This document shows, one piece after another, positions 3,721 through 64,000 of a DNA stretch of 64,000 nt. This DNA comes from an uncultured Bacilli bacterium (GTDB lineage Bacteria; Bacillota_I; Bacilli_A; RFN20; CAG-826). The stretch is from positions 30,602 through 94,601 of the forward strand of contig CAKPJO010000001.1 of NCBI GenBank assembly GCA_934162685.1. The letters are read 5' to 3'. Position 1 is the stretch's first letter. Each line of letters begins with the position of its first letter. A program made the translations under genes and the position numbers. Under the pieces are notes generated by a model. The model saw only the letters and a list, made by a program, of their open reading frames with translations, had not been told where the DNA came from and searched no databases.

Positions 3721-6700
3721 TTGACCCCTGTTGGGGTGTGTTATAGAAAGGTGGAGATTTTAATGTATTGTAGTTTACATAATCATACAATGTATTCAAA
3801 TTTAAAATTATTAGATAGTATCAATAGAATTCCAGATATGATAAATAAAGCTATAGAATACGGTTTTAACGGTTTAGCTATCACGGACCATGAAATATTA
3901 TCAGGCCATGTTGAAGCTTTAGAATATGCTGATAAGATTAAAAAAGATCATCCTGATTTTAAAGTAATACTAGGGAATGAAATTTATTTAATTAAAGAAA
4001 AAGAATATAAACAACCAGAAACAAAATTCTGGCATTTCTTATTAATTGCAAAAGATTTAACAGGATACATGCAAATTCGTAAATTAAGTTCTAAAGCCTG
4101 GGATCGTATGTATGTATCTAAAGGACAAAAAAGAACTCCCACTTTTTATGAAGACTTTGAAGCAATAATTGGTAATGATAAAGGTCATATTATAATGTCA
4201 ACAGCCTGTTTAGGTTCATATTTAAACGATTGTTTTATTAGACACGATTTAGAAGAAATTAAATTTTATATAAATTGGATGGTTAAAACTGTTGGAAAAG
4301 AAAATGCTTTTTTAGAAATACAAGATAGTGACTCTATTGAACAACAAAATTATAATAAATTTATTTTAAAATTAGGAAAACAATTAAACTTAAAAGTAAT
4401 TGTAACTCAAGATGCTCATTATCTGAATAAAGAAGATTTACAAATTGAAAAAACCTTTTTAAACAGTAAACAAGAAGGAGATCGAGAGGTTGACGCTTTC
4501 TATAAATATACTTATATGAAACCAGAAAGTGAAATCAAACAAATTCTTTCTTATCTTCCTGTAGAAGATGTTCAACAAGCTATTGATAATACTCAAATAA
4601 TTTATCGAATGATACAACCATATGATATAAGAAAAGATACAATTATTCCACAAAGAAAACTTCCTTCCTTTCAATTAAAACATTTATTAAAAGAATGGTA
4701 TGAACAAGAAGAAAACATAAAAGCATTTGCTGAAAGTTTGTGGGACCAAGATAGATTTTTATTGCATTTAATTGAGCAAGGAATAGAAGAAAAAAATTTT
4801 AAAGTAACTAAATTAGAAGCAGATAGAATTAATACTGAACTTGGTGTTTTAAAATATATTACTGAAAGAGTGCATCAACCTATGAGTGCGTACTTAAATT
4901 TGGTGCAAGAAATTATTAATTTAATGTGGGAAGTATCGTTTATCGGCGTCAGCAGAGGATGTTTTACAGAAGATGCCCAAATTTTAATGGGAGACGGAAG
5001 TTATAAATCAATTAAAGATGTACAAGAAGGAGACTTAGTTTATACTCATTTAGGAAGAATAAAGAAAGTTTTACAAACTCATCAATATAACGTAAATGAA
5101 CGATTATATACAATCAAAGTGCGCGGACGTCCTGCATTTACTTGTACTAATAATCATCAAATATTTGGTAGCCATCAAGGTTCTTGTAAAGCACCTGGTT
5201 CTAAAAATGTTTATTGTTCAGGAAAGTGTAAAAGGTTCAGTACTTGTCCTTATGCCACTGGAGAAGCAATTCAAGCTCATTGGATTGAGGCACAAAATTT
5301 AAAAAAGGGAGATTTTGTTACAACTCCAAAATTTAATTTTGCAAATCCTACAAGTAATTTAATAGATTTAATGAAATATATCCCTGAATCTAGTGCCGTA
5401 GGAGAAAACCAATTTTATTATAAGCGTAAAGATGATCGTTATTGTTCTGGAATAGTGAAAAAATTTATAGCCAATCGCTATTCACAATGGACACCTGGTC
5501 TTGCTCGTCTTGTTGGTTATTTTATTGGAAATGGATGGACAAGAAAAAAAGATGATAAGTCAAATTCAATAATTCAGTTTGGCCTTGCCTTTCATAGTGA
5601 GGCAACAGAAAAAATTAATGATTGTGTTAATTTAATTGAAAACGAATTACATTTATCTTATAAAATCAGACCTTCTTCTCGTCGAAAGGTAGTACAAATT
5701 ATAGTAGGAAACAAGCCTTGGGCTAACTTTTTTGCGGCAGAGTGCGGAATAGGAAGTCATAATAAAAAAATTCCTTATAAAATCTTCACAGATTTAACAT
5801 TAGCTAAAGAATGCATGAGAGGGTTAATTCTCACTGATGGTAGTACAGATTTAAAAAGACGTCGTTTTAAATATAGCACAATTTCTCCTATGCTTCAAAA
5901 ACAAGTTTTTTATTTGCTTAATTTATTAAAATATAATTCTTTTATGAATGAATTTGATAAGAGGCAAGAAAATTGGGAGCCAGAAAGAACAAATTGTTTA
6001 TCAGGAACTCAACTTTTGAAATTTTGCGAAGAATTTAATTTAGGAACACCTATGACTTCACAACTTGCATATACTCGTCAAGATTTTGAAGAAGATGAAC
6101 AATATTATTATAATAAAATTGAAAATATAGAGACAAAAAACTTTCAAGGAATAGTTTACGATTTAACAGTAGAAGATGACACTTCTTATATTGTGAATGG
6201 GTGTGCTGTACATAATAGCGCAATGTCATTCTTAATTAATTATTTAATTGGAATTGTGCAAGTTAATCCAATTCCTTACGATGTTCCTTATTGGAGATTT
6301 ATGAATACTGCAAGTATTCCAACGTTAACGCCAGAAGAAATTAAAGCAGGTAAAAAACTTTCAATAGCGGCAACGATGCCTGATGTTGATATAGATATTA
6401 GTCCTACAAAAGCAAATGAGGTTATGGATATTATGAGACAACATTATGGAGAAGATAATATTCTTAATACACTAACTTATAAAAAAGAATCTTTAAAAGC
6501 TGCTTTAAATAGTTGCGGTAGAGGATTAGGATTATTACCCGAAGAAACTCATTATTTATCAAGTTTGGTTCCTACTTCTAGAGGTCACGTTTATTCTTTA
6601 CAAGAATGTGAAGAAGGTGACGAAGAAAAGGGCTTTGAAGCTCATCCAGAGGTAATTCAAGCTATTCAAAAATATCCTGGTTTATATGAGGCCGTTAAAA

Positions 6701-7479
6701 AGATAGAAGGTTTAATTTCAGGTTCTGGAATTCACGCTTCTGCCGTTTACTTCTTTCCTGATGGTTATATTAATTGTTGTTCTATGATGCGAGCCCCAAA
6801 CGGTACCCGTATAACAGGATTTGATTATAGAGCGGTTGATGCTTGTTCGGGATTAAAAATGGACTTTTTATATACCGATTGTCAAACTAAATTAATGAAA
6901 ACAATGGACTTATTATTAAAATATAATCAAATTAAATGGCAAGGTTCTTTAAGGGCTACTTATAATAAATATTTACATCCAGATGTATTAGATTATAATA
7001 ATCCTGAAATGTGGAAAAGAATGCAAGAAGGACAAATATCTAATTTGTTCCAATTTGATAGTTTACAAGGGGCCATTTGTATTAAAAGAACTCGTCCTGA
7101 GAATGTAAAACAATTAGGAGCAGCAAATGCTGTTATGAGATTAATGAGTTCTGATGGTGGAGAAACTCCATTAGATAGATATGTACGTTTCAGAAATGAT
7201 ATAAGCGAATGGTATAAAGAAATGGATGAATATGGTTTAACAAAACACGAGCAGTCTCTTCTTGAAAGATATTTATTACCTAAGTTTGGCAATTCTGTAG
7301 AACAAGAAGATATGATGCAAATTGTTCAAGATCCTGAAATTTCTAACTTTACATTAGGAGAAAGCAACAAGTTTCGTAAGGTGGTGTCCAAAAAGAAACT
7401 TAAAGAAATTGAAAAATATAAGAAATTATTCTTTGAAAAAAATAAAGATCCAGAGGTTTCAGAAGAACTAGATTTTTAG
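3721..7479 (+). CDS. dnaE: DNA polymerase III alpha (DnaE-like) N-terminal cistron containing an intein; PHP domain plus palm/fingers
   Basis: PHP motifs (HNHTMYS, ITDHE). Catalytic MPDVDIDIS aligns with DnaE MPDFDVDF. LKMDFL, NLFQFDS and MMQIVQ blocks match DnaE. Ends at the position where DnaE continues with ...KFAGYGFNKSHS. Confidence 0.8.
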   Translation: MTPVGVCYRKVEILMYCSLHNHTMYSNLKLLDSINRIPDMINKAIEYGFNGLAITDHEILSGHVEALEYADKIKKDHPDFKVILGNEIYLIKEKEYKQPETKFWHFLLIAKDLTGYMQIRKLSSKAWDRMYVSKGQKRTPTFYEDFEAIIGNDKGHIIMSTACLGSYLNDCFIRHDLEEIKFYINWMVKTVGKENAFLEIQDSDSIEQQNYNKFILKLGKQLNLKVIVTQDAHYLNKEDLQIEKTFLNSKQEGDREVDAFYKYTYMKPESEIKQILSYLPVEDVQQAIDNTQIIYRMIQPYDIRKDTIIPQRKLPSFQLKHLLKEWYEQEENIKAFAESLWDQDRFLLHLIEQGIEEKNFKVTKLEADRINTELGVLKYITERVHQPMSAYLNLVQEIINLMWEVSFIGVSRGCFTEDAQILMGDGSYKSIKDVQEGDLVYTHLGRIKKVLQTHQYNVNERLYTIKVRGRPAFTCTNNHQIFGSHQGSCKAPGSKNVYCSGKCKRFSTCPYATGEAIQAHWIEAQNLKKGDFVTTPKFNFANPTSNLIDLMKYIPESSAVGENQFYYKRKDDRYCSGIVKKFIANRYSQWTPGLARLVGYFIGNGWTRKKDDKSNSIIQFGLAFHSEATEKINDCVNLIENELHLSYKIRPSSRRKVVQIIVGNKPWANFFAAECGIGSHNKKIPYKIFTDLTLAKECMRGLILTDGSTDLKRRRFKYSTISPMLQKQVFYLLNLLKYNSFMNEFDKRQENWEPERTNCLSGTQLLKFCEEFNLGTPMTSQLAYTRQDFEEDEQYYYNKIENIETKNFQGIVYDLTVEDDTSYIVNGCAVHNSAMSFLINYLIGIVQVNPIPYDVPYWRFMNTASIPTLTPEEIKAGKKLSIAATMPDVDIDISPTKANEVMDIMRQHYGEDNILNTLTYKKESLKAALNSCGRGLGLLPEETHYLSSLVPTSRGHVYSLQECEEGDEEKGFEAHPEVIQAIQKYPGLYEAVKKIEGLISGSGIHASAVYFFPDGYINCCSMMRAPNGTRITGFDYRAVDACSGLKMDFLYTDCQTKLMKTMDLLLKYNQIKWQGSLRATYNKYLHPDVLDYNNPEMWKRMQEGQISNLFQFDSLQGAICIKRTRPENVKQLGAANAVMRLMSSDGGETPLDRYVRFRNDISEWYKEMDEYGLTKHEQSLLERYLLPKFGNSVEQEDMMQIVQDPEISNFTLGESNKFRKVVSKKKLKEIEKYKKLFFEKNKDPEVSEELDF
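4960..6216 (+). mobile_element. intein (419 aa) with a LAGLIDADG homing endonuclease domain, inserted in the GRGS palm motif of DnaE
   Basis: Starts CFTEDAQILMGDGS (block A) and ends VHN followed by S (+1). LAGLIDADG blocks LVGYFIGNGW and GLILTDGS. Flanking VSRG|...|SAMSFLINYLIG matches DnaE GRGS-AAGSLVAY. Confidence 0.8.
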
Positions 7480-11803: not shown

Positions 11804-12025
11804 ATGAAAAAGATTATTATTATTTGTAACGACAAAGTTATTTCAGAACACGAAACATCAGATGTATATTATGATGCAATGATGAAAGAATGTGAAAGAC
11901 AACTAAATGAAGGAACTCTAGATAGTAGAGTGTTTGAGTTCAATGAAAAAGAACAAGCTAAAATCACTAAATATATAGTGAACAATCTCATATATAAATT
12001 AATAGATAAGAAAGAAGTTGAATAG
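11804..12025 (+). CDS. hypothetical protein
   Basis: RBS AAAGGGTG. Confidence 0.45.
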   Translation: MKKIIIICNDKVISEHETSDVYYDAMMKECERQLNEGTLDSRVFEFNEKEQAKITKYIVNNLIYKLIDKKEVE

Positions 12026-13031
12026 AATGAATTTTGAAAATAGAGAATATAATAAACCTTCGCAAATTGAATATGAAGGTACTTTAACTAAAAATAGGAA
12101 TCAAAGGCCTACTTGTGACCAAAAGTTTTTAGACTGGTGTGTGGCTAATGCAGAACGTTTTAGCTCTTATTATACTATGGCTAAAGCATTAGGACTTGAT
12201 GGCAGGGCTTTTCAACGTTTAATAGAAGATTATAACATTACATTAACATTTGATAGTAAAGCTGCTCATACTCCTAAATTATATCAAGATTATGACTGGT
12301 TATATAATCAAATTGTTACTTTAAATAAGTCTCGTAAGCAAGTAGCTGAAGAAAATGGCTGGACAGTTAGAGTTTTAGAAAAATGGATGGGCATTTTAGG
12401 AATTAATAGAAGAACATACCAAGATTTAAAACAAATGTCTGATAAGCAAAGAGATTTAATTAAATTCTCATTATTAGGTGACGGATGTGTTTCTGATACA
12501 GGATTTTTTATTGTGTCTCATAGTGAAAAGCAAAAAGATTATTTATATTGGAAATATGAAATGTTGAAAGATCTTTGCTCGCATGAACCGACACGATATG
12601 ATGAGAGTGTTAAAATAATTAACGGAAAAGAAGTTAATTGCGAACCATATTATAGATTTAATACTAGAAAATTAAAGGAATTGTTTAATCTTAGAGAAAT
12701 GCCAATAGAACAAATTGTTAATGATTTAGATGAATTTGGTTTGTCAATTTGGATGTTGGACGATGCTAGCCGAGATGCTTCTTGGAAGTTATGTATAGCC
12801 GCTTATCCTGAAGAAACTAGAACATTTATTGTAAATTATTTTAAGGATAAAGGTTTTTTATCTGCTAAAGTAAGGCTATATGATACAAGATATGTGGAAT
12901 TTAATGCTGACGACAGTAGAAAAATAGATGCTATAATTTTGCGTAACATTCCTCACAATTTAGACATTATACAATATAAAATTATAAATAATAGTAGAAT
13001 TAAATCACCAAGGAGGGGAAATAATGGCTAG
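12018..13031 (+). CDS. free-standing LAGLIDADG homing endonuclease with an N-terminal DNA-binding region
   Basis: Two LAGLIDADG-type motifs (LLGDGCVSD, WMLDDASRD). Located exactly at the junction that splits dnaE; overlaps both neighbours. Confidence 0.7.
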   Translation: MNRMNFENREYNKPSQIEYEGTLTKNRNQRPTCDQKFLDWCVANAERFSSYYTMAKALGLDGRAFQRLIEDYNITLTFDSKAAHTPKLYQDYDWLYNQIVTLNKSRKQVAEENGWTVRVLEKWMGILGINRRTYQDLKQMSDKQRDLIKFSLLGDGCVSDTGFFIVSHSEKQKDYLYWKYEMLKDLCSHEPTRYDESVKIINGKEVNCEPYYRFNTRKLKELFNLREMPIEQIVNDLDEFGLSIWMLDDASRDASWKLCIAAYPEETRTFIVNYFKDKGFLSAKVRLYDTRYVEFNADDSRKIDAIILRNIPHNLDIIQYKIINNSRIKSPRRGNNG

Positions 13032-14583
13032 GCGTCTTTTCCTAGATTATGTCTGGGGAAAATGCATTCAACCACAAGTAGGATACGCCTTTTCTTTGCC
13101 GCACGATATTAGTTATTCTATAGAAGCCGTCCAAGAAGCTAATTTAGCAACAAGATATAACCCTCTTTTTTGGGAATGTGCTTGCCTTTGTATCAACGCA
13201 GGAAATACGGAAACAGGATTTGAAGAAGACGATGATGAAGAGCAAGACGAGGAAGAAAAGAAAACTAAATCAGGAGCACCATCATATGGTAAAATTTCAA
13301 AAGCTTTAACCGATTGTAGGCTTCACGGTGTAAATATTGAATTTCCAAACATTAATACATCTCAAGCAGATTTCGTTCCTGATATTGAAAATAATAGTAT
13401 TTTATATAGTTTAAAGACTGTTACAAATGTGAGCGATGATTTATATTCACAAATCATTCAGAATAGACCTTATTCATCAATAGAAGATTTCTGTTCTAAA
13501 GTATCTGTTACACCAGCACAAATGTCCAGTTTAATTAAAGCTGGTTGCTTCAATTCTTTATATAAGATGTCAAGACGAGCAATTCTCTATGCTTATTTCA
13601 ATTATTTAGCAAATCAAGAAATAATCCTTAAAAAAACATTGAACTTATCTCATTTAAAGAAAGCTTTGTCTCTTGGTGAGAAATTTCCAGGTTATGAAGA
13701 TAAAATTCAATTATTATATTTTAAAGTATACATTGATAAAAATCAAAAATTAGATCCTAGTAAAGAGGCATTCTCACTTAATGCTTTATTAAATAAGAAA
13801 TGTTATAAACTCACGGAAGAATCTTGCATCAGCTTTTTCAATATGAAAGTTGCGCCTTCATTAGATTTAAGAAAAGGTGATTATGATTATTTAGATGGAC
13901 ACACAATATTATTAAAAGCATCAAGCTTTACAAAATTCTATGATGCTCAAATGAAAGAATTAACTGATTATCTAAATTCTGAACAAGGTAAATTAGTATT
14001 TCAAAAAATGGAAAAAGATGCTTTTATAAAAGATCTTATTGAAAAATACGCAGAAGGAACCGAAGCTGACTGGGATATGCAAACAATGAATTTTTATCAA
14101 TCTGAACACGCACTTGCTAGAATGTCCGAAATAAAGTATAACATTAAGAATTTTAATAAATTACCAGAAACGCCTATAACACGTAAGTATATAGGTAAAG
14201 ACGGAGAAGAAAAAGAGACAGCTGAAACTTGTGCAATATGTGGTACAGTTGTAGATGCTAATAATGTTAAACACGTGGTAAGTTTATTAACTAAGTATGG
14301 AGTGGTTAATGTTAAATTATTCTCACAAGCATATTCTAATTTTAGTCAAAAGATAAGTATTGTTGAAGATGCCGCCAAAAAGAAGAAAACAGTTTTAGAC
14401 GACTCTTGGTTTAAAAGAGGAACGAAATTAATTATTCACGGGTTCAGAAGAGAAAATATGTTTGTTGCTAAAACTGAATATGTTAATAAAGTTCCTAAAA
14501 TGGTAGGATTAATAGAAAGTTTAGATACAAACGGAAATGCTTCTATTAGATACACAAGAAAGAAGAAAATTAGTCAAGAATAA
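13024..14583 (+). CDS. dnaE: DNA polymerase III alpha (DnaE-like) C-terminal cistron; fingers/HhH/beta-binding region
   Basis: [32 protein letters not shown] aligns with DnaE [46 protein letters not shown] aligns with GLKILPPDINSG. Continues the alignment where 3721..7479 stops. Confidence 0.75.
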   Translation: [519 protein letters not shown]

Positions 14584-18045: not shown

Positions 18046-19296
18046 ATGGCAGAAGAAGAATACAAGCGTGCATTAGCACATGTCGAAAAAGTAGTAGATA
18101 TTCAACCTATTGAAGGAGCAGATCGAATTGTTCTTGCAACTATTTTAGGTTGGAAAGTAGTAGTTAAAAAAGATGAATTTAAGGTAGGAGATTTAGCAGT
18201 TTATGTGGAAATTGACTCTGTTTTACCTGCCGATGATGTGAGATTTGAGTTTTTAAAGAGCAAAGATTATCGCATCAAAACAATGAAACTAAACAAATTC
18301 AAAGTGTTTAGTCAAGGAATTGCGTTCCACGTTAACGAATTTCCAGAAATTAAAAATCCTGCTGAAGGAATGGATGTGACAGAGGTTCTAAAGATTACGA
18401 AATATGAACCATATGAACCACCAGTTAAATCTCTTTCTTACAAAGAAGCTAAAAATAAGAGAATGTTTGCTCGACATCCTAAATTTTTCCAAAGTAAATT
18501 TGGTAAATTTGTCAGAAAACATCCTACTTTATTAAAGATATTTGAACATTTCTGGGGCGGCAAAAATATTAAACCTAAGAAATTCCCTGATTGGATTAGA
18601 AGAACTGACGAAATCAGATGTGAAAATATTGCAAATATTTGTTCTTATAAAAAACCGCTTTTAGTAACGTGTAAAGTTGATGGTTCAAGTACAACTTTTG
18701 CATTAAGATTTAAGAATGAAAAACATAAGAAATATGAAATATTTGTATGTTCTCGTAATGTGCGTATGTTAACCGAAACACAATCTTGTTACTTTGAAAC
18801 AAACGTATATTATGAAATGTTTAAAAAATATGATGTTGAAGAATTCTTAAAGGCAACAGCAAATCTGTTACAAGCAGACTTTGTTATTTTACAAGGTGAA
18901 ACATATGGCGATAAATTACAAGGAAATCCTTATAAAATGGATTATGTTGATTTTAGAGGTTATAACTTAATTTATGGTTATATGGAAGGAACAAAGCAAT
19001 TTAAAGCAAATGTTAATAACCCACTATATCATAGAGTAGGAGACACTATTCAAACACGCATCAATAGTATTAAAGCTAAAGAAATGTGTGAAATTCATGA
19101 TATTAAATGGGTTCCAATTTTAGAAGAGAACTTCATTCTTCCTGATACAATGGAAGAATTAAAACAACAAGCTACTGGAGCATCAGTTATTAATCCTAAA
19201 GTATTAAGAGAAGGACTTGTTTATCGTTCAACGACTGATCCAGAGTTCTCATTTAAAAATGTTTCAAGAGAATATTTACTAAGCAAGGGGGAATAA
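18046..19296 (+). CDS. ATP-dependent RNA ligase-like protein (nucleotidyltransferase KxDG family)
   Basis: Motif I CKVDGSS, motif IV-like REGLVYR, C-terminal Lys motif; N-terminal nucleic-acid-binding-like domain. Confidence 0.55.
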   Translation: MAEEEYKRALAHVEKVVDIQPIEGADRIVLATILGWKVVVKKDEFKVGDLAVYVEIDSVLPADDVRFEFLKSKDYRIKTMKLNKFKVFSQGIAFHVNEFPEIKNPAEGMDVTEVLKITKYEPYEPPVKSLSYKEAKNKRMFARHPKFFQSKFGKFVRKHPTLLKIFEHFWGGKNIKPKKFPDWIRRTDEIRCENIANICSYKKPLLVTCKVDGSSTTFALRFKNEKHKKYEIFVCSRNVRMLTETQSCYFETNVYYEMFKKYDVEEFLKATANLLQADFVILQGETYGDKLQGNPYKMDYVDFRGYNLIYGYMEGTKQFKANVNNPLYHRVGDTIQTRINSIKAKEMCEIHDIKWVPILEENFILPDTMEELKQQATGASVINPKVLREGLVYRSTTDPEFSFKNVSREYLLSKGE

Positions 19297-25822: not shown

Positions 25823-27187
25823 ATGCTAACAAAAGAAAAATTAGAAGAAATCGTAAGTAGACCTGAATATGATTTTCTAAGAACTAATCCTCGATTAAAG
25901 GATAAAATCTTATTCTTGACTGTCGGAGGCAGCTATGCTTACGGAACCAATGTTGAAGGTTCAGATATCGACATTAGAGGAGTTGCGATGAATAGCATCG
26001 AAGATATTTTAGGTGGTACAACATTTGAACAATTTCAAAATGATGAAACCGATACAGTTATTTATTCAGTCAATAAGTTTATTAAATTGGTAACTGATTG
26101 TAATCCTAATGTTATTGAAATGTTATTTTGTGAACCTGCTCAATACATTTGGGTATCTCCATTAGGACAATTATTATTAGATAACAAACATCTATTTTTA
26201 TCTCAAAAAGCTTATTATACCTTTGGTGGATATGCTAGAGCTCAATTAAATAGATTAGAAAATGCTTTATGTAGAGGCAATTACTTCACACAGGCACAAA
26301 AAGAAGAGCACATTGCAAGAAGTGTAGAAAATTCTATTGATAGCTTTAGTGAAAAATATTCAGCAATGATACAAGGCAAAGGAAGCATCAAACTTCATAC
26401 TGATAAAGTAGATGAAAATGGCGATAGGATCATCACAACTGATATGACAATGAAAGATGTTCCTTTAAGAGAAGTTCGTTCTATGTTAGAAGAAATGACT
26501 AATATTGTAAGAGATTATGACAAGTCTGGTGGCTGGAGAAATACTAAGAAAGATATTCCGCACTTAAACAAGCATATTATGCATCTAGTAAGACTATATT
26601 ACATGGGTATTGAAATTCTAGAAACTGGTGCTTTACATACTTATAGAAGTAAAGAACATCAATTATTAATGAGCATCAGAAGTGGATTATTCTTAGACGA
26701 AAAGAATAATTTAAAACCTGAATTTTACACCGTATTAAATGATTTAGAAAATAAGTTAAAAACAGCTTTAGATAATAGTAAATTACCTAAAAAAGCTAGA
26801 CGAGATGAAATCAAACAATTACAAATTAAAATTAATTTATTAATGATTAAAATGGGTGCCTATAAAGAATATATCTTGACTGAGTTTGATTTAGATGAAA
26901 AAGAAAAAGTTGTTAATAATAAAAACTATAAAATTACCTTATCTGAAATTTTAAGTATGAACCCAAGCTATACTGCAATTCATTGTGATACCGAAGAAAA
27001 AGCCAATAAATTATTAACAATTTTAAATAAATTAGGACAAAAATGGATTAGTGGAGAATCATATTTAATAAATAACAACTGGAGGTCATACAAAACCCAA
27101 ACTTGTTATGGCTTAGATGGATCATATGGAATTTCTAAATGGTACGATGATGTTTACGAATTCGATGATATTGATTTAAATAATTAA
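25823..27187 (+). CDS. Pol-beta-superfamily nucleotidyltransferase fused to a C-terminal AIHCDT...YEFDDIDL domain (family member 4)
   Basis: NTase signature GGSYAYGTNVEGSDIDI (GS...DxD). C-terminal 90 aa AIHCDTEEKANKLL...LGQKW...TCY...VYEFDDIDL. Confidence 0.6.
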   Translation: MLTKEKLEEIVSRPEYDFLRTNPRLKDKILFLTVGGSYAYGTNVEGSDIDIRGVAMNSIEDILGGTTFEQFQNDETDTVIYSVNKFIKLVTDCNPNVIEMLFCEPAQYIWVSPLGQLLLDNKHLFLSQKAYYTFGGYARAQLNRLENALCRGNYFTQAQKEEHIARSVENSIDSFSEKYSAMIQGKGSIKLHTDKVDENGDRIITTDMTMKDVPLREVRSMLEEMTNIVRDYDKSGGWRNTKKDIPHLNKHIMHLVRLYYMGIEILETGALHTYRSKEHQLLMSIRSGLFLDEKNNLKPEFYTVLNDLENKLKTALDNSKLPKKARRDEIKQLQIKINLLMIKMGAYKEYILTEFDLDEKEKVVNNKNYKITLSEILSMNPSYTAIHCDTEEKANKLLTILNKLGQKWISGESYLINNNWRSYKTQTCYGLDGSYGISKWYDDVYEFDDIDLNN

Positions 27188-27606: not shown

Positions 27607-29073
27607 ATGGAAAGAAAAGATATTGAACAACTTATAAAATACACTTTACCAACTGAGGTATTCACAATCTTTAACACTTTAGAAAATAAAGGTTTTGAAA
27701 CTTATTTAGTGGGCGGAAGTGTGAGAGACATGTGCTTCAATGCTATTTTTCACGACAATAAAGACGCTCGTTATCGTAACGTTCACGATTTTGATTTTGC
27801 AACCGCTGCTCTTCCTGAAGAAATTATAGAAGTTTTTAAAGATTATGAAGTAATTCCAACTGGGTTAAAACACGGCACTGTTACAGTCAGGATCAACCAT
27901 CAAAATTTTGAAATAACAACATTCAGAATAGATGGTAAATATGACGATTTTCGTCATCCTAACTCTGTATCATTCACCAGATCTATAGAAGAAGATTTGA
28001 GCCGTCGCGACTTCACAATGAACGCTATTGCTTATAGTCCAACAAGAGGTTTAGTCGATCCTTTTAATGGTATTGGAGATCTTGATAATATAAGATGTGT
28101 TGGAGACCCAACCCAAAGATTTCGAGAAGATCCTTTAAGAATTCTTAGAGCATCACGCTTTGCTCTTCAATTTATGATACCTATTGAAATCAATACATAT
28201 GAAGCTGCTCAACAAAACGTGAATTTAATTCATCATTTATCAAAAGAAAGAGTAACTGATGAATTCAAAAAAATGTTAAATATCGATCCTTTAAACATTA
28301 CTTATTCTATATTTAGAACTTATTATGGCTTTATTTTAGAAGAATACTTTCCAACATTAAAAGAATACGCAAATTTTCGTCCTACTTTGAATAAAGAACC
28401 TCAAATTTGGAATAAATATCTTCGTATACAAGACCATCAAGTTAATGTGTTTTTAAGAGTGAGATATTTATATCCAATGTTTGATTTTGCTCTTTATTTG
28501 GCTGCTTTATGTCACGACTTAGGAAAACAAAATGCAGAAACAGTAACTCTAACAGACGACAAAATTAAAATATATCATTATTATAGACATCCAGAAGAAA
28601 GTCTTAAAATTTTTGAACAAGAAGTATTGCCTCGTTTATCATTATCAAAAAGAGAAATTGACGAAGCCAGAACATTAATTTTATATCATGATATGCGTAT
28701 TGCCCCTACTAAAAAATCAGTAAAAAAAGCTTTACAAAAAATGTCCCCATTAATGTTATCTTTATTATTTAAATTGCAAGAAGCTGACCTTGATGACCAT
28801 GAATTTGCTAATTTATTAAGAAAGAAAAATACATATCGTGATTTATATGTGACACAATACATCGCCTCAGAAATTCATAAAGATATTCAAGAATGCTTCA
28901 CCATAAAACAACTTAAAATCAATGGTAGAGACCTTCTAAATTTAGGAATAGAACCAGGCCCCAAAATTGGTAAAATTCTTAAAGAATTATTAAAGAAAGT
29001 TATTGATGAAGAGATTCAAAATGATCCTAGGTCTCTCTTACAATATGCACAACATTTAGCCACAAAAGAATGA
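27607..29073 (+). CDS. cca: CCA-adding enzyme / tRNA nucleotidyltransferase (class II, with HD domain)
   Basis: Head motifs LVGGSVRDMCF and RRDFTMNAIAY. HD-like LCHDLGK in the C-terminal half. Confidence 0.7.
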   Translation: MERKDIEQLIKYTLPTEVFTIFNTLENKGFETYLVGGSVRDMCFNAIFHDNKDARYRNVHDFDFATAALPEEIIEVFKDYEVIPTGLKHGTVTVRINHQNFEITTFRIDGKYDDFRHPNSVSFTRSIEEDLSRRDFTMNAIAYSPTRGLVDPFNGIGDLDNIRCVGDPTQRFREDPLRILRASRFALQFMIPIEINTYEAAQQNVNLIHHLSKERVTDEFKKMLNIDPLNITYSIFRTYYGFILEEYFPTLKEYANFRPTLNKEPQIWNKYLRIQDHQVNVFLRVRYLYPMFDFALYLAALCHDLGKQNAETVTLTDDKIKIYHYYRHPEESLKIFEQEVLPRLSLSKREIDEARTLILYHDMRIAPTKKSVKKALQKMSPLMLSLLFKLQEADLDDHEFANLLRKKNTYRDLYVTQYIASEIHKDIQECFTIKQLKINGRDLLNLGIEPGPKIGKILKELLKKVIDEEIQNDPRSLLQYAQHLATKE

Positions 29074-56818: not shown

Positions 56819-57121
56819 TTAATTAATCTCTTGATATTTAATCAATAAATTAATTTTTTTCAAAGAATCATTTATAAATGAAGCGTAATCTTCATATAAA
56901 GACTCATCTTCATATTCTTGCACATTTTTAAAGTATGTACTAAGAAGTTTATGATTTTTATATTCAGATGAAACTTGAATAAAGTTTCTATCTTCTTTGA
57001 TAAAAATTCTTAGTCCTGAAAGTTTTTCACTTTCAAAGACTGTTGTATATTCATCATTAAAACAAAAAGTTTTAACGTGAATAAATTTGATTTTATCTAA
57101 GAATAATATGAAATTCATCAT
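56819..57121 (-). CDS. hypothetical protein
   Basis: RBS AAGGAGGTGAATAATAATG. Confidence 0.5.
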   Translation of the reverse strand: MMNFILFLDKIKFIHVKTFCFNDEYTTVFESEKLSGLRIFIKEDRNFIQVSSEYKNHKLLSTYFKNVQEYEDESLYEDYASFINDSLKKINLLIKYQEIN

Positions 57122-57135
57122 TATTATTCACCTCC

Positions 57136-57747
57136 TTATTCTTCATCAAAGATATCATCCATCGAATGGAAGCATTCATCATCAATACCTGTGATGAATA
57201 TCTCCCTTTCCTTTGCTGATAATTCTGGAAGAACATCTTGAATATGCTCGTAACCAGGTTCTGCAAAATACCAACGAAGCCAATTTTCAAATTGGTCTTT
57301 GTTAATATTAACCGTGTGATATTCTTCACACATAGGACACATTCTCCCTATTGTGAGAATACCTTTTTTGTAATTTTGGAGATGAATTTGGAAATCTCCA
57401 ATAACTAATGGATCGAATCTATAATAAAAGACTCGCCCAATGTATTCAATTACATTGATATTGTTTTCAAATCTTTGAATATCATCAATGCAAATCATTG
57501 GAGTAAACTTATAATTAACTCCAACAAACATTTTGAATGAAGTTGCCTTTCCTTCTTCGTCATAGCCAAGTTCAATTTCAACAGGATATAAATCTGTTGT
57601 TAGAACATAAGCATTTTTCTTTTGTGATTTAATACTCATATTGCCAAATTTAACAATATCAGTATCATCGTCTACATCTTCAACTGTAAATTCTTTGGTT
57701 GCTAATAAAGCTTTAACCAAACTTTCAATCATAATAATGTTTTTCAT
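57136..57747 (-). CDS. hypothetical protein with a CxxC...CxxC zinc-binding segment
   Basis: RBS CGGAGGAACAAAATATG; CPMCEEYH. Confidence 0.5.
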   Translation of the reverse strand: MKNIIMIESLVKALLATKEFTVEDVDDDTDIVKFGNMSIKSQKKNAYVLTTDLYPVEIELGYDEEGKATSFKMFVGVNYKFTPMICIDDIQRFENNINVIEYIGRVFYYRFDPLVIGDFQIHLQNYKKGILTIGRMCPMCEEYHTVNINKDQFENWLRWYFAEPGYEHIQDVLPELSAKEREIFITGIDDECFHSMDDIFDEE

Positions 57748-57784: not shown

Positions 57785-57870
57785 GTTATATCTTTTTATA
57801 CTAGTCAAATGTTTACCAGACATTTAATTCTAGTTCTCTGTTTCGCTCGAAAGCTCATCAGCGTTGGACT
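57785..57870 (-). promoter_or_regulatory. repeated regulatory element copy B (TTGACTAGTATAAAAAGATATAACTAGACAG plus AAATGT...ACATTT)
   Basis: About 45-nt block conserved with copy A; also shares TTTTACCGAC. Confidence 0.45.
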
Positions 57871-57919
57871 TTTACCGACGGACAGAGAGCAAGTTTATAG
57901 TCTTGCTCTGTATATGAAA

Positions 57920-58774
57920 TTATTCCTCAAGAATTTTTTGTAGTTGAGAAATAATTTCTTTTATATTTTCTGGAACTTTTGCTTCAGGCTTGTGGTAAAC
58001 ATCCCAACATTTTTCATTCCTTAAACGAGGAGCTTTTTCTTTTAACTCTTTAATAAATGCCAAGACAGCTGGCATTTGAGATATTTCGATTTCTACTTCT
58101 GAAAAATAGAAAGTTTTGTCCTCTTCGACAGAAGAATCTATTTCAAATGAATATCTATTTCCTCCATAACTACGTTGGCTGTATTCGTTAGTCAATGTAA
58201 TTTCTAAAAGTTCGTCATAGTGGAGTTCATCTTTATAGATTGTGGCGGTTAATGATAATTCACCATCACGATCGTGCACTCCAAGTTCACAATATTTTAA
58301 TAAATTGAGTTTCGTGAATGTTTTACAAAATTTATTTAATTTTTTTGTTTTTTCAATACTTTCTTCATATCTTTTTTTGATTATAGAATTAAAGAAATTT
58401 AATATCTCTTTAATTGGAAGGAATTCTGTTTCCCATTCTTTTTGAGAAACTTTCCAGCTTGGTGCTGGGTGTTCTTCTGATCTTTCGTCGAAAATAGTGA
58501 CAGAGTCACTATCAACTTCTTCGAAGTCACATTCCTTTCCGTCTGGATATTTTGTTTCAATGGAAGGACCAATTAATAGACCGTTCATTGAGAATAAGTC
58601 TACTTGTCGTTTCCACATATGCATTGTTGTTAGGACATAATTACCATGCGATAAAAAGATAAAGAAGACTTCTCCGTTATCTTCTTTAATATTTGCGTAC
58701 CCATCTATTTCAACTAATTGCCATTTTTTCAAATGTTTTAATTGAAATAATTGTGTTAATAATGTTTTGTCCAT
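57920..58774 (-). CDS. hypothetical protein
   Basis: RBS TGGAGGTAACATTATG. Confidence 0.55.
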   Translation of the reverse strand: MDKTLLTQLFQLKHLKKWQLVEIDGYANIKEDNGEVFFIFLSHGNYVLTTMHMWKRQVDLFSMNGLLIGPSIETKYPDGKECDFEEVDSDSVTIFDERSEEHPAPSWKVSQKEWETEFLPIKEILNFFNSIIKKRYEESIEKTKKLNKFCKTFTKLNLLKYCELGVHDRDGELSLTATIYKDELHYDELLEITLTNEYSQRSYGGNRYSFEIDSSVEEDKTFYFSEVEIEISQMPAVLAFIKELKEKAPRLRNEKCWDVYHKPEAKVPENIKEIISQLQKILEE

Positions 58775-59904
58775 AATGTTACCTCCAGTAACCGATTCTT
58801 GATATTATCTCCATCGCTTGTGTGGCTTTTTATATTTCACAAGATTTTACGTTTTGAGTTTCAAGGATTACGTTAAACCTAAAGCGCTCATCAGCACGGA
58901 GTCTCGCTCACCTCCGTGGACACAGAGAATTAACTCTGTGTTTCGAAAATAAATAAAAGCTCTTTCTGCGTCGAAGGTACGTAATCCCCTTTCCCGCTCT
59001 CCTGAAAGAAATCTTTATAGTTTATTATAAAACTAATTAGTGTATTAATTGTTTCCGATTAATTGTTTACAACATAACGGCGTCTGAAGTACGCGCTTCT
59101 GCCTGTTCCTATGCTGTTCACTGCGTCCAACTCTGCGTCAACGTCACATTGTTGCCTAGCACTGTCACGTTATATTCTACTAGGACTTTAGGTTTTTTCT
59201 TGAAATGGGTGACCTTAAACCAATACCATAACTAATGTGACTCCGCTCTCCTGAGTTTTCCGCTCTCCTGCTACTATAGCGAGGTAGTTGTAAACTAAGT
59301 GACTATTGAATCCTTCAACAATCACCGTTGTTAATCGGATAATTAACAACTAATAGTTTATACTAGAGCTTAACAAGCTTCCTTGATTGAAGCTTGTTCT
59401 AAGCTCTTAGGAAGATAAAAATCTTCCATACCCTAGAAAACTAATTTAAACTAGAGTTCTCTTAGCCGAGCAAGTGCCTTACTATGTCTTGAATATCTCC
59501 TAATGGAGCCCTAGTCCTTTCATCTAGGGGTTTACTACCGAATTCAGCTATATCTCCATTCCTCAGCCGTTGTGACATGACTTTGTTGTGCCCTCTTACA
59601 ACAAAGCAAGAATCTTGTGATTCTCAACGCTGGTGGGAATGTACCAGTTGCTGTTGATTCACGGTTTAAGTAGGCTCAAACCGTACCTATCCTGCCGCCA
59701 TGCTTCCAAGGTGGGAAGTTTGCATTCTGGCCAGTCGGGAATTGCACCCTAACGCAGGTTTTATATTGAGAGTATTGGAATCATTACTGATTCATGCTCC
59801 GCGAAGGCTCTAGTGCCTTTCGCTAAGGAATATTTGCATCACTGCAAATCCACCTTTTATAAAACACCCTATTGAATAAGGTGTTTTACAAAAAGAGGAT
59901 AGCG

Positions 59905-60144
59905 TTAAGCTATCACCTTTTTTGATATTTTGTGAATTTTCACATTTGTGTGACCACAAGATTCCAATTCACGTTTAACTTTCTCAGCTTGAGCTTTGGA
60001 AGTCAAAACTTCATAAGAAGTTTGTTCAACTCCAGTGCCAAAGGTGTTGAAAGTTATGAAATATAAATATTTCATGAACGAATCCTCCTTTCTATATATT
60101 TCACTTACACACATATTATTATATGTATAAGTCGTAATATACAT
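59905..60144 (-). CDS. hypothetical small protein
   Basis: RBS AAGGAGGATTCGTTCATG. Confidence 0.5.
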   Translation of the reverse strand: MYITTYTYNNMCVSEIYRKEDSFMKYLYFITFNTFGTGVEQTSYEVLTSKAQAEKVKRELESCGHTNVKIHKISKKVIA

Positions 60145-60249
60145 TTTTTAATATATATTACACTTACCATATCTTTATATCCGATCAGTGAGCCAACACG
60201 ACATAAAAACCCAATATAAAGCGTACTTCTGCTTTTTTCATAAAACACC

Positions 60250-60299: not shown

Positions 60300-60815
60300 C
60301 TACTCTTCTTCTTCCAAATCAAACGGTTCTTCACTAACCGCATCTTTAAAAGTATGAAGACGAGGTAACGTCAAATAATTTTTCAAGATATACGCCACAT
60401 CCTCAGGCTTATACGAAATTGCGATAATAACGAAATTGTTAAACGATGGATCATCCTCAATAACGGTATTAAAATAAGTCATCCAAGCTTTAGAATAAGA
60501 TAAAGGGATATAACCTTTAATATCAGAAATTGGAATATCAGGTTGAATGCCCCTAAAAGAACACCAGGCCTCAAAATGGTCCTTACGAATTTCGTAAAGG
60601 TAGTGAGAAAGGGTGTCAACGATATCTTCTACAGAAGAGCAGATACCGATTACTTGTTCGCTGCTAGCATCTGTAATCCAATATAACTCAATGCGAACAT
60701 TACGTTTGTTTTTAGGAAGTGAATGAAGACGACGTTTAGAAACTTGATATGGAGCATAGACAATATTATCCTCATCTGGAATAAGAGAACTTTCGATTTT
60801 TTTCAATTTTTTCAT
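60300..60815 (-). CDS. hypothetical protein (GC-richer codon usage)
   Basis: RBS AAAGGAGATTTTAAAAATG. Confidence 0.55.
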   Translation of the reverse strand: MKKLKKIESSLIPDEDNIVYAPYQVSKRRLHSLPKNKRNVRIELYWITDASSEQVIGICSSVEDIVDTLSHYLYEIRKDHFEAWCSFRGIQPDIPISDIKGYIPLSYSKAWMTYFNTVIEDDPSFNNFVIIAISYKPEDVAYILKNYLTLPRLHTFKDAVSEEPFDLEEEE

Positions 60816-60961: not shown

Positions 60962-61654
60962 TTAAAGTGTAATTTCTGTTTGAACGAATGAAGAAAGGAC
61001 GGCGGGGTTACAATCACCGATAATAATATTTTCGGAAGGGACGATAAGATGTCCTTCGTGCCAAGGAAGGCGGAAACAAGCGATGGGGTTATTTGAACCA
61101 ACGACTTGGAAATCTAAGTGATAGGTATCGTGAAGTGTTTTAACTAAGCTTTCTTGAACGGAAGGTTTTTTTGTATCAAGCCCTGCTATGTAAAAGATGA
61201 ACTTGCGGTCATACTTAATCCAATGTGAATGATGTGGATTCATCGCGGCATAGACGGCGAAAGCGGTAAGAAGACGTCGAATGTCTGGAGAGGTTTCGTG
61301 GTGCTCATAAAATGTGTTGTTTAGGTTTTTAATGTCGATAGGATTAATAAGAAGAACGCGTGAACGCGACTCTGCTACTTCGGCGCGTTGAAAGGCGGGG
61401 AAATAGAGAGTGGCGATACGTGAAGCCGCTTGACGTGAAAAACCCAACGAGGAGGATAGGGCATCTTGAATTGCAAAGAGCGACTCTGAGGGAGATACGG
61501 AACCTCCTTTGCTTTTATAAATGTCATAGAGGAAGCGCCAGGTGTAGGGCTCAAGAGGTCCTACGAAAGTGACGCTTTCTTGTTTTTGGGATGGTGTGTT
61601 GTTTATATTTGTGCTGTTATTATTATTGTTAGTACTATTATTATCTGTTGTCAT
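60962..61654 (-). CDS. hypothetical protein (Asn-rich N-terminus)
   Basis: Start reset to ATG 61654 (AAGGAGG plus 9 nt). The ORF-track start 61708 lies inside the upstream gene. Confidence 0.5.
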   Translation of the reverse strand: MTTDNNSTNNNNNSTNINNTPSQKQESVTFVGPLEPYTWRFLYDIYKSKGGSVSPSESLFAIQDALSSSLGFSRQAASRIATLYFPAFQRAEVAESRSRVLLINPIDIKNLNNTFYEHHETSPDIRRLLTAFAVYAAMNPHHSHWIKYDRKFIFYIAGLDTKKPSVQESLVKTLHDTYHLDFQVVGSNNPIACFRLPWHEGHLIVPSENIIIGDCNPAVLSSFVQTEITL

Positions 61655-62936
61655 TTTGAAAAGAACCTCCTTGTTTAAATTCATTATTAATAACATTATT
61701 AATAACATTATTAATATCTTGTTCTATGGCATCGTGAGGGGCAAGATAGTCATCATCATAACCGAAGAGGCCATTAAGCATACGTTGAATGGAAATCTCA
61801 AGTTGAGGAGTGACTTTTTTAAGGGAATATTTGACACCAAGATATTCGGTGCCGTTTGGATCTCTTATCGGGCAATAGGAATCGCCGTATGGAATAAGAG
61901 AAACAATTTGGTCTTCTAAGACGTCCCAAGCGAATGCCCAATTAAATGTTGAATAAAGAGGTGCTAAACGAGAGCAATAGAAGAGGAATTCATCACCAGA
62001 CATGTTATGATCAACGAGTTGATTTTGAAGGTCGCCGATAAGTGATTCTATGAGAGAAGAGCGAAGCTCGGAATAGGTGTCTGGGGAGAGGTCGGAGAAT
62101 TGAGAAGAAGAGAGGGACTCAAGATGTTTGATTTGTTTACGGGCAATATAAATTTTATAAAGCGAACGTACGAAGTCTAATTTTTCTTGGGAGAAGAGGG
62201 GGGCGTAATGCGCTTCGAAAGTTGGAAGCATTGATACGTTTTTCTTCTTAGCGTCGCCATTTTTGGCAAACTTGATGTCGAAATCAACATTCTCGAATTC
62301 GCGACATAATTTATTCATTGTACAATTTGAGGTGATAAGGGGCGAATACTTTTGATATTTACGCACAAGATTTGTTTCTTCTGGAGTTTTGTTTTCTTTA
62401 CGAAGCAGTTTCTTAAACTTAATGCCGAACATATCGCGACTTACCTCGTTATAGGCGGACTCAAACTGTTTAAAGCGTTGATTAAGCTCTGGATAGAGAT
62501 AGCGGAAGAAGTAAGGTTTTTTAGAAATAACCATGGCATTATGTTTAAACTTTGCGAGGCGTTCTTCTGGAGTATCATCTTCTGTTATTTGTTCAAAATG
62601 TTTCCAAGAATGAGGGAGAGACGGTTTGTCGGCTCCTTTAATACGGTCAATTTCTTGACCAACGATTTCACGTAAGAGCTTAATACGTGTCATAATTTCG
62701 TTATATTGATCTTGTTGTGCTGGATTATCGAAGATTGCTGCCATTGCATAGAAAATAGTGGCGCAATTCGAGAAGCCTCCAACGCCTGTTCCGAAACCTT
62801 TGGAAACGGTTTTAGTTATGTTTGCGACCGTCATTTTTTGGACGGGGGCAATGCCTTTTTCGTATGTTATAATATTTTGTTCTTTATGAGATCCTTTTAA
62901 GAAGTAAGGGTTGTCTGTGGATAGGACTATATCTCC
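61641..62936 (-). CDS. 3' exon of an intron-split gene; candidate large-subunit (beta-prime-like) fragment of a phage multisubunit RNA polymerase (speculative)
   Basis: The reading frame stays open upstream of the first ATG (62834) to ~62936. If spliced to exon 1, the junction reads ...RLSDADYD|GDIVLSTDNPY..., resembling the beta-prime catalytic NADFDGDQMAV motif. The exon boundary is approximate. Confidence 0.4.
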   Translation of the reverse strand, partial: GDIVLSTDNPYFLKGSHKEQNIITYEKGIAPVQKMTVANITKTVSKGFGTGVGGFSNCATIFYAMAAIFDNPAQQDQYNEIMTRIKLLREIVGQEIDRIKGADKPSLPHSWKHFEQITEDDTPEERLAKFKHNAMVISKKPYFFRYLYPELNQRFKQFESAYNEVSRDMFGIKFKKLLRKENKTPEETNLVRKYQKYSPLITSNCTMNKLCREFENVDFDIKFAKNGDAKKKNVSMLPTFEAHYAPLFSQEKLDFVRSLYKIYIARKQIKHLESLSSSQFSDLSPDTYSELRSSLIESLIGDLQNQLVDHNMSGDEFLFYCSRLAPLYSTFNWAFAWDVLEDQIVSLIPYGDSYCPIRDPNGTEYLGVKYSLKKVTPQLEISIQRMLNGLFGYDDDYLAPHDAIEQDINNVINNVINNEFKQGGSFQNDNR

Positions 62937-63346
62937 CGATGATACCCTCGGTTTCCCGATATTTATAGGAGAAGGGGACTAGACTATATCTTAGCTAATT
63001 AATAACTGTTTGGGGGTCATTAATCAGATGTTGGCACTTCGATTTAATGGATTTTATAATCAAGCTAATATCACCTGATAGCCAACCTTGTTTAAGGGCT
63101 CTACTCTACTCATTTATTTTTAACAGATTTTCTCTATTAATATACTTTCGATAGTCGTTTGAGTTTTTAAACCTTTTATGTAATTTGATTTAACTTACCA
63201 CAGGATTGTCGTCTCCTTTACGAGTTACGAGTTCCCTGTTAGCAATGCTATTATTCGCCATTATCCTGCGAAACACTTCACGTTAGCATTACACCCAGAT
63301 TTACTAATCTGGTTCACCAACTTTTACTATGACTAGTAATATGTCA
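62937..63346 (-). mobile_element. group I intron (ORF-less, ~410 nt; boundaries approximate)
   Basis: In gene sense: the 5' exon ends with U (gaT|TGAcat, in-frame stop at the intron start). R-like element CAAACGACTATCG (plus 63149-63161). S element AAGATATAGTCT (plus 62981-62992) about 45 nt before the proposed terminal G. GACUA/UAGUC can form P7. Confidence 0.6.
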
Positions 63347-64000
63347 ATCATAGTCAGCATCGCTTAAGCGAGCTGTAGCAGCATCATATGTGCTGAATAC
63401 TATTCCAGAATATAGGTGGCTTAACCACCGCTTCGCCTCGTCAGAGTTTAATACGTCTGATGGGTCATGTTCGTGCATATCAATTTGAGGACTTCGACAG
63501 AGATCAACTCTCGGTACATTCCTATCGCTCCAGAATTTAGAATATATTTGATCTCTTCCAACTACCCCTATTGGCTCTAAACCTAGTGCAGATTGACATT
63601 GGGCAACAGGATCTGACAACATAAACTGATAATTTCCATGAACCCAGATTTTGCCTATTTTGGCGCGATTAATGGTTTCAGTGATATTTTTATAAATCTT
63701 ATGTTGAATATAACTATCTTTAAGGAAGTTGTTGTTTTTAACCAATGCTTTCATATAATTTGTTTGAGCAGTTCCATAAAGAGTATTAAACATAGAGTCT
63801 TCGTTTTTGGGCCCAAATGTAAATAGAAGTGTTGAAAGAGTCTCACCTGTACAAATTTGTTGTATCCAATCTACAGTCGGTTTAATAAGACTCTTAATGT
63901 CATCATTCGATAAAGTTAATGATTGAATGTATTGATAGTTTGCAAGAATATATTCTTCATCTTGTTTCTTTGGATAACGGGCAACTCCCCAAGGAATATC
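63347..64000 (-). CDS. 5' exon (partial, continues beyond the window) of the intron-split gene
   Basis: Open frame on the minus strand through the window end. C-terminal ...RSPQIDMHEHDPSD...RLSDADYD precedes the intron. Confidence 0.5.

Follow-up and report, generated by a model that had tools for sequence, protein, structure and literature searches.

A candidate large structured RNA of a human-gut phage with a predicted hammerhead ribozyme at its 3' end

Results

Organization of the locus

The DNA analysed here, hereafter the window, is a stretch of 64,000 nucleotides (nt) of contig CAKPJO010000001.1, and our subject is a gene-free segment at positions 58775-59904. The segment lies within a block of minus-strand genes, where it follows an open reading frame (ORF) of 56 amino acids (aa) and precedes an ORFan gene for a 284-aa protein (Table 1). 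It most likely represents a new family of large structured phage RNA, a candidate that falls outside every Rfam family.

A 139-kb human-gut metagenome contig that encodes the 284-aa protein agrees letter for letter with the window in this region. The phage has a single-subunit RNA polymerase of the YonO type, and the GenBank phages nearest to it by this enzyme are SPbeta-like Bacillus phages, Clostridium phage c-st and Enterocloster phages. The source is a human-gut phage of ~140 kb with a distant relationship to the SPbeta and c-st groups.

An earlier note on this DNA had described the segment as GC-richer, dense in hairpins and devoid of credible ORFs. The overlapping ORFs indeed reach 44-49 aa at most, and TAA, TAG and TGA are each present in 4-13 copies per frame in all six frames. 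Because each stop type recurs in all six frames, no frame opens by the recoding of a single stop; a protein gene under an alternative genetic code was likewise rejected, since every frame holds at least four copies of each stop codon. The GC content is 0.38-0.46 over 58800-59850, as compared to about 0.27-0.34 in most flanking windows. The repeat CCGCTCTCCTG, reported as threefold, occurs at exactly three sites (58994, 59243 and 59260), which are the sole matches in 64 kb on both strands even when one mismatch is allowed; 0.09 matches are expected by chance, and none of 100 shuffles reached three. All five hairpins quoted in the earlier note are found in the sequence. One of them, a hairpin with a U-run at 59862-59888, had been taken for the end of the segment. 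Because the local genes are on the minus strand, this hairpin instead lies at the 5' side of the element, as the second member of a tandem pair of terminator-like hairpins.

Relatives and constraint

Related phage contigs, numbered L004-L022, were reached via protein homologues, contig look-ups and a metagenome pattern scan. Nine further distinct copies of the segment were found among them (L006, L008, L009, L010, L011, L014, L016, L020 and L022), all 95-97% identical to the window. L004, a related phage type, lacks the segment and has unrelated sequence instead. One of the three repeat copies reads CAGGAGGGCGG in L008, and the terminator-like hairpin at 59862-59888 stays a hairpin in relatives with an altered stem, such as AAAACG/CGUUUU in L014. 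The limits of the RNA body were set at the predicted hammerhead cut after C58919 on the 3' side and, approximately, at the first conserved base past the terminator-like hairpins on the 5' side.

The RNA differs between the window and four relatives by 2.9-4.2% per site. In the adjacent 171-aa gene, codon positions 1-2 differ by 1.8-5.3% and position 3 by 14-19% in the same comparison. These values show that the RNA is under purifying selection about as strong as that at the amino-acid-determining codon positions. Because the RNA diverges like codon positions 1-2 and not like position 3, a pseudogene is excluded and a neutral spacer is disfavoured. The homologues of the 284-aa protein are merely 62-75% identical, as opposed to 95-97% for the RNA copies.

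Database searches assigned no family to the ~945-nt body. At the gathering score, an Rfam scan of the entire window reported nothing, and the covariance models of GOLLD, ROOL, OLE, HEARO, raiA, RNase P, tmRNA and 6S gave no match to the RNA. With a threshold of E<=10, a scan of 2.7 kb missed the hammerheads described below because of its speed filters, and they surfaced in scans of 131-996 nt alone, with scores below the Rfam cut-offs. In pieces of 331-2701 nt at the same threshold, the sole match to the large-RNA models just named was a 6.5-bit tmRNA fragment, and the rest of the region gave hits at chance level alone. Near and distant DNA searches of GenBank phages gave no match to the segment, and exact-pattern and protein scans of IMG/VR found nothing. 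A 20-mer matched twice in GTDB genomes, both times by chance in unrelated coding genes, while a pattern scan of JGI metagenomes yielded two further copies of the segment and no more. MT835481.1, the closest GenBank relative by its RNA polymerase, has no equivalent ORF-free region or hammerhead.

A type II hammerhead at the 3' end of the RNA

The RNA ends in a putative type II hammerhead, HH-B, which reads CGAAA-CACAGAG-UUAAUU-CUCUGUGU-C / CACGGAG-GUGAGCGAGA-CUCCGUG-CUGAUGA-G on the minus strand, the slash marking the predicted cleavage between 58919 and 58918. Two of the quoted hairpins, CACGGAG..CTCCGTG (58895-58918) and ACACAGAG..CTCTGTGT (58920-58941), correspond to its stems I and III. Its assignment to type II follows from stems III and I being closed and stem II open. 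HH-B matches RF02276 with 25.7 bits (E 0.0016 when 161 nt were scanned, 0.01 with 996 nt), and its core is complete, comprising C3 U4 G5 A6 N7 G8 A9, G12 A13 A14, the A15.1-U16.1 pair and an H17 that is not G. N7 is the sole core position left free by the hammerhead consensus. It is also the only core position of HH-B that is substituted (U/C/A) among 11 distinct contigs, namely the window, L006, L008-L011, L014, L016, L019, L020 and L022.

The 7-bp stem I and loop I are invariant among the relatives. The 8-bp stem III shows two compensatory pairs, in which A-U and G-C are swapped, in L008, L016 and L020, and one change of A-U to G-U in L016. Moreover, GAGCG of loop I (58909-58905) could pair with the tail directly behind G10.1, which reads CGCUC or, in the window, CGCUU, both sides being invariant or wobble-compatible; a pseudoknot between loop I and the 3' tail is known for type II hammerheads (PMC3088659). 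In local folding, the HH-B fold and its competitors are ~1 kcal/mol apart, and the best constrained "stem II" takes core bases.

A type III hammerhead in the downstream linker

A second putative hammerhead, HH-A, lies beyond the 284-aa ORF in the same orientation and reads CUCUGU-C / CGUCGG-UAAAAGU-CCAACG-CUGAUGA-GCU-UUCG-AGC-GAAA-CAGAG, with the predicted cut at 57881/57880. Its core is complete, its stems I and II are closed and its stem III is open. The 6-bp stem I has one C-A mismatch in the window and is perfect in L006, L009 and L010. HH-A matches RF00008 with 18.2 bits (E 0.1 in 131 nt). It forms a 53-nt presence/absence module in a conserved intergenic linker, being present in five of the eight aligned copies, and its N7 is A in L016. 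In a descriptor scan of the window, HH-A and HH-B were the only convincing hammerheads. Both are probably members of the known type III and type II classes, respectively, a membership that is provisional, given scores short of the Rfam cut-off for both and no regular stem II in HH-B.

The linkers also contain a unit of ~45 nt, promoter-like and 5'-UTR-like (untranslated region), which begins with AAACATTTGACTAGTATAAAAAGATATAACTAGACAG and is found at 57814 and 55747 on the minus strand, 25-30 nt before two ORF starts. The same unit precedes other genes in related contigs.

Predicted fold of the RNA

A consensus fold of 321 pairs was predicted with RNAalifold from an alignment of eight copies. 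It contains six compensatory pairs, as compared to 1.9+-1.1 in shuffles, with none of 500 shuffles reaching six, and controls in which the partner was slid gave 0-1. Over ten sequences, the six compensatory pairs and 20 one-sided consistent changes stand against 14 pairs with a mismatch. The fold favours one strand: it reaches -290 kcal/mol on the minus strand versus -258 kcal/mol on the plus strand, i.e. it is 12% more stable on the minus strand, where it holds 33 G-U pairs. The GNRA loops GUGA and GUAA, together with a further GUAA at 59618-59615 in most relatives, exist on the minus-strand reading only, and the terminators and both hammerheads likewise belong to this strand.

The placement of insertions and deletions is more telling evidence of structure than the compensatory counts. 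A deletion of 25 nt in five phages matches the tip of the variable-length hairpin exactly (Table 1). In another hairpin (59298-59326), a loop insertion of ~346 nt with an 85-aa ORF is present in L008, L010, L014, L016 and L020, and L009 retains a ~95-nt remnant consisting of the insertion ends; the insertion lengthens the helix by about 16 bp. The 85-aa ORF (L008:3425-3682; also in L010, L014, L016 and L020) belongs to no Pfam or PHROG family. In the predicted 27-bp long-range helix, two single substitutions retain pairing (G-U to A-U in L016 and U-A to U-G in L014), and the sole bulged U is precisely the base that is deleted in L008, L009 and L011.

A motif resembling the 11-nt GAAA-tetraloop receptor was matched once in the window, versus 0.32 matches expected per 64 kb on both strands. 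It is kept in 10 of 18 loci, comprising six distinct relatives (L006 and L008-L011 among them) together with loci nearly identical to the window; in L014 and L016 it carries point mutations.

The overall fold is a prediction, with comparative support for several hairpins and one long-range helix alone. Long-range helices predicted at 21-27 bp make one large molecule more probable than a cluster of small-RNA genes, and the earlier suggestion of a structured RNA gains from conservation above that of synonymous sites, compensatory pairs, indels at helix tips and GNRA loops on the minus strand alone.

The gene slot behind the RNA

The fragment between the two predicted cuts (58918 to 57881) is 1038 nt long and bears the 284-aa ORF. 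The RNA is always directly trailed by HH-B, and then by a variable ORF or none. In L006 and L022, no ORF follows and the next linker is reached directly. The slot instead holds a 192/196-aa ORF plus a 287/290-aa ORF in L008 and L009, a 102-aa ORF in L014, a 97-aa ORF in L016, and a 101-aa ORF plus a 227-aa ORF in L020; in L010 and L011, too, the 284-aa cassette does not come after the RNA. The 284-aa gene is found elsewhere in the genome of L006, L019, L020 and L022. The homology of the relatives stops at 58882/58883, just past the ribozyme core. No Pfam or PHROG family was found for the 284-aa protein, for the flanking ORFs or for the other cassette ORFs.

Because the gene behind HH-B differs between relatives, the RNA is not a leader dedicated to 57920..58774. 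The evidence speaks against the view of the segment as a long 5' leader or riboregulator of that gene: the relatives keep the RNA with the gene replaced or, as in L006 and L022, absent, and the predicted cleavage site would separate the two. Homologous recombination between the repeated linkers is the simplest explanation for this shuffling of cassettes. By way of a purely functional analogy, an integron platform also combines a constant upstream element, a slot with differing promoter-distal ORFs and structured junction elements. However, neither an integrase nor attC is present here, the boundaries are a ribozyme and a linker, and homologous recombination is simpler.

Table 1. Positions of the predicted RNA, the two putative hammerheads and associated features in the window
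Feature	Position	Strand	Basis or remark
Large conserved non-coding RNA body (candidate), ~945 nt	58919..59864	-	no ORF, no Rfam family bar the terminal hammerhead, conservation
HH-B, putative type II hammerhead	58879..58948	-	RF02276 match and complete core
HH-B: GAA; stem III hairpin; C17; stem I hairpin	58944-58942; 58941-58920; 58919; 58918-58895	-	
HH-B: CUGAUGA; 3' tail GCGCUU	58894-58888; 58887-58882	-	
HH-A, putative type III hammerhead	57835..57887	-	RF00008 match and complete core
HH-A: stem III 5' strand; C17; stem I hairpin; CUGAUGA	57887-57882; 57881; 57880-57862; 57861-57855	-	
HH-A: stem II (GCU-UUCG-AGC); GAAA; stem III 3' strand	57854-57845; 57844-57841; 57841-57836	-	
284-aa ORFan cassette between both hammerheads	57920..58774	-	ORF call
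Predicted 27-bp long-range helix	59331..59358 (5' strand) with 59031..59062 (3' strand)	-	consensus fold
Predicted 21-bp closing helix	59737..59757 (5' strand) with 58989-58966	-	consensus fold
Variable-length hairpin AACAAGCTT..GAAGCTTGTT	59365..59407	-	25-nt tip 59401-59377 deleted in five relatives, short loop instead
Hairpin with loop insertion in relatives (between 59319 and 59318)	59298..59326	-	alignment of relatives
UAUGG-hairpin-CCUAAG, like the 11-nt GAAA-tetraloop receptor; hairpin GGAAGAT..ATCTTCC within	59406..59430	-	pattern search
CAGGAGAGCGG copies 1 and 2, 17 nt apart	59243..59270	-	repeat search
CAGGAGAGCGG copy 3 (minus-strand reading of the repeat)	58994..59004	-	consensus fold pairs it with 59474-59458; helix invariant
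GGAUUACGU in the RNA, perfect complement of ACGUAAUCC (58873-58865, 5' UTR of the 284-aa cassette)	58979..58987	-	read from sequence
Terminator-like hairpin AAAACACC..GGTGTTTT (also given as AAAACACC..GGUGUUUU) and U-run	59862..59888	-	just upstream of the RNA; read from sequence
Intrinsic-terminator-like site, end of the 56-aa ORF (59905..60075)	59898..59914	-	

Other features of the phage

Upstream of the 56-aa ORF, a 60-nt block (60131-60190), likely a promoter or operator, shows 98-100% identity across all the relatives and holds two occurrences of GTAAGTG(T/A)AATATATA. At ~60300-60600, a negative GC skew of the plus strand gives way to a positive one and the GC content rises, while the genes remain on the minus strand.

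The gene of the YonO-type polymerase (61641-63793, minus strand) is split after ...LSDADYD by an ORF-less insert of ~407 nt (about 62937-63343). In L016 the gene is intact and encodes 983 aa (L016:214-3165), and in L014 the gap carries a LAGLIDADG ORF (L014:817-1659). The insert contains AAGATATAGTC-like strings, such as occur in the cores of phage group I introns; an Rfam scan at the gathering score found no intron in it. The DNA polymerase is seemingly split as well, with two ORFs of the same PHROG families and a LAGLIDADG-like ORF before the second part (3721-7479, 12018-13031 and 13024-14583, plus strand).

The plus strand also encodes RNA-repair genes: an ATP-dependent Rnl-type RNA ligase (PF09414 and PF21189), a RlaP nucleotidyltransferase and a CCA-adding enzyme (18046-19296, 25823-27187 and 27607-29073). 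We considered the RNA ligase as a circulariser of the hammerhead products and rejected it, the enzyme being of the ATP-dependent Rnl type and not RtcB.

Discussion

We propose, with a probability of roughly 0.6, that the segment is the gene of a structured non-coding phage RNA of ~945 nt, whose 3' end would be made by a hammerhead acting in cis, the same cut providing the next message with a 5'-OH. The RNA would be read from the minus strand, past the two tandem terminator-like hairpins behind the 56-aa ORF, and the transcript would continue into HH-B. Through self-cleavage behind C58919, the RNA would be released with a 2',3'-cyclic phosphate at its end, and the downstream message would be left with its 5'-OH end. 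HH-A would cut after C57881 behind the next ORF, so that this ORF would reside on the 1038-nt fragment. The slot behind the RNA holds differing ORFan genes across relatives, with the RNA and its hammerhead as constant parts. We infer that the RNA is transcribed, that the ribozymes cleave, that the long-range fold is as predicted and that the RNA, by analogy with GOLLD and ROOL, may act in trans during infection as a stand-alone molecule and not merely as a leader.

Several observations weigh against this proposal. With respect to the hammerheads, the scores of HH-B and HH-A (25.7 and 18.2 bits) are below the curated cut-offs of RF02276 (37) and RF00008 (48.5), and neither was reported by the whole-window scans. 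The stem II of HH-B has one contiguous pair (G10.1-C11.1); a further helix of 4-7 bp (AAAGAGC with GCGCUUU/GCUC) is possible past a 13-nt U-rich bulge, with a mismatch in L016. In addition, L008 and L009 have one extra base after A6 of the HH-B core, which should slow cleavage; an insertion at this position, A6a, is among the natural core variants of hammerheads (PMC3088659). With respect to the fold, covariation rests on few events because all copies are within 5% of each other, and the shuffle control can be exceeded by related sequences without any structure. Most helices are free of any variation, among them two of the three that are long-range, and the 21-bp closing helix, nearly invariant with two mismatches in L016, is without covariation support. 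The hairpins of the "hairpin-dense" segment are real, but the segment does not stand out by folding energy: the minimum free energy (MFE) z-score is -3.5 at 59560-59859 versus -5.4 in a neighbouring coding stretch. Such z-scores are a poor guide in this genome, because the coding flanks score equally low or lower; the coding region 57000-57700 on the minus strand folds far better than its shuffles, with z about -4 to -5. No sigma-70-like promoter was found upstream of the RNA. Searches of GenBank phages, IMG/VR and GTDB representative genomes turned up no homologue beyond this phage clade, and because the homologues are confined to one clade, recent spread is not fully separable from constraint.

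Alternatively, the RNA might be a purely cis-acting platform or leader for the cassette slot, serving read-through, cleavage or message stability with no role in trans. We consider this unlikely. It would agree with the invariable position of the RNA directly before HH-B and a variable ORF, with the 5'-OH end that self-cleavage would give the cassette message, and with alternative folds in which stem I or the CUGAUGA core is sequestered and whose energies nearly equal that of the hammerhead fold. It would also fit the nine bases at 58987-58979 that complement the 5' UTR of the cassette in the window, L006 and L022. However, their partner ACGUAAUCC is present only in this cassette type, and the other types lack it although the RNA side is invariant there too. 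L006 and L022 have no cassette at this place, and their RNA abuts the next conserved intergenic unit, which apparently has its own promoter-like element. Moreover, ~900 nt selected at nearly every position are far beyond the need of known leaders.

It is more doubtful still that the segment is the remnant of a selfish element or an ORF-less one, such as a group I or group II intron, which spread recently and owes its conservation to youth. Intervening sequences do occur elsewhere in this phage, where the RNA and DNA polymerase genes are split and some relatives carry LAGLIDADG ORFs, and the element is present in some related phages and absent from L004. The likeness to phage group I introns with a looped-out ORF extends to the RNA itself: in five relatives an ORF sits at the tip of a peripheral hairpin with the helix preserved, GNRA loops occur along with a receptor-like motif, and the RNA polymerase gene of this phage probably contains an intron. 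However, the RNA has neither flanking exons nor a group I core, and a hammerhead is found where the 3' splice site would be. The models Intron_gpI, Intron_gpII and D1-D4 gave no match to the region, even at E<=10 with relaxed filters. No gene is interrupted: the ORF on the upstream side closes with a stop codon followed by two terminators, and the gene on the other side is whole and can be exchanged. The copies do diverge, and in a pattern of compensatory pairs and tip-located indels, and the flanking synonymous divergence of 14-19% indicates that the phages are not recent clones. Of the intron or ribozyme remnant suggested previously, the ribozyme part is borne out, though not in the way foreseen, two hairpins being stems I and III of a putative hammerhead with a complete core, whereas the intron part is not.

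A role at the DNA level, as a replication origin, packaging site or recombination hot spot, seems marginally less credible again. Three 11-mers, two of them 17 bp apart, lie by an AT-rich tract (59010-59060), mosaicism breakpoints between relatives coincide with the 3' edge of the element, and the cumulative plus-strand GC skew has its minimum at ~60.3-60.6 kb, about 0.5 kb upstream of the RNA, though gene orientation is constant there. The repeats are nevertheless few, short and irregularly spaced (17 and 249 bp), no DnaA-box-like sites were found inside the segment, and Pfam and PHROG searches of the flanking ORFs recognised no initiator gene beside it. A near-invariant stretch of ~950 bp exceeds the usual need of an origin. 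The complete hammerhead core, the GNRA loops and the receptor-like motif all lie on one strand, and the 33 G-U pairs would turn into A-C mismatches on the other. Finally, a decayed protein-coding gene can practically be dismissed despite the gene-like length of the segment and its gene-dense surroundings, given the many stops of all three kinds in every frame (no translated search of the segment was made), the empty searches of GenBank phage DNA and a conservation above that of the live neighbour's synonymous sites, which is the opposite of what a pseudogene would show.

To our knowledge, large structured non-coding RNAs of bacteria and phages, such as GOLLD, ROOL and OLE, are few, and none of them has an established function. 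GOLLD, ROOL and similar large ornate RNAs have been studied by cryo-electron microscopy (PMC12286853). Like GOLLD and ROOL, the RNA described here would be a non-coding RNA of several hundred to ~1000 nt from Firmicutes phages, GC-richer than its surroundings, with many hairpins, GNRA loops and long-range helices, all predicted in the present case. On the other hand, it matches none of their covariance models, so that the likeness is one in kind only, and no tRNA genes lie near it, the window containing neither tRNA nor tmRNA genes. It also differs by ending in a predicted self-cleaving hammerhead and by accommodating an optional ORF in a loop.

In 2011, Perreault et al. described hammerheads on either side of single prophage genes (PMC3088659). 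As in those phages, two putative hammerheads of the same orientation here bracket one small phage gene, and HH-B shares the closed stems I and III and has a 3' tail that might pair with loop I. Natural core variants with an insertion after A6, the place of the extra base in L008 and L009, are part of the same description. In contrast to them, HH-A and HH-B are below the Rfam cut-offs, and HH-B lacks a regular stem II. HH-B ends a non-coding RNA of ~945 nt and is not placed between two genes, while HH-A is an optional 53-nt module in a repeated intergenic linker.

These comparisons allow a more speculative picture, which we regard as possible, though clearly less probable than the core proposal: an ornate phage RNA of ~1 kb, its 3' end made by its own hammerhead, would head a ribozyme-delimited slot for the exchange of ORFans and play a role in trans, for example in an assembly made of RNA alone or as a host-factor decoy, with the three exposed CAGGAGAGCGG copies as binding or docking sites.

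To conclude, conservation, structural signatures and a ribozyme-defined end would make this RNA a well-defined candidate, within a narrow clade. If real, it would add a further family of large RNAs, residing in human-gut phages, one end of which is defined by a built-in ribozyme. Its natural indel variants would mark dispensable helices, which would be useful for structural and genetic work. The locus also offers a concrete case for the question, raised in 2011, of why phages bracket single genes with hammerheads: the bracketed position would be a swap site for ORFans, and one of the bracketing ribozymes, if real, would double as the 3'-end maker of a non-coding RNA.

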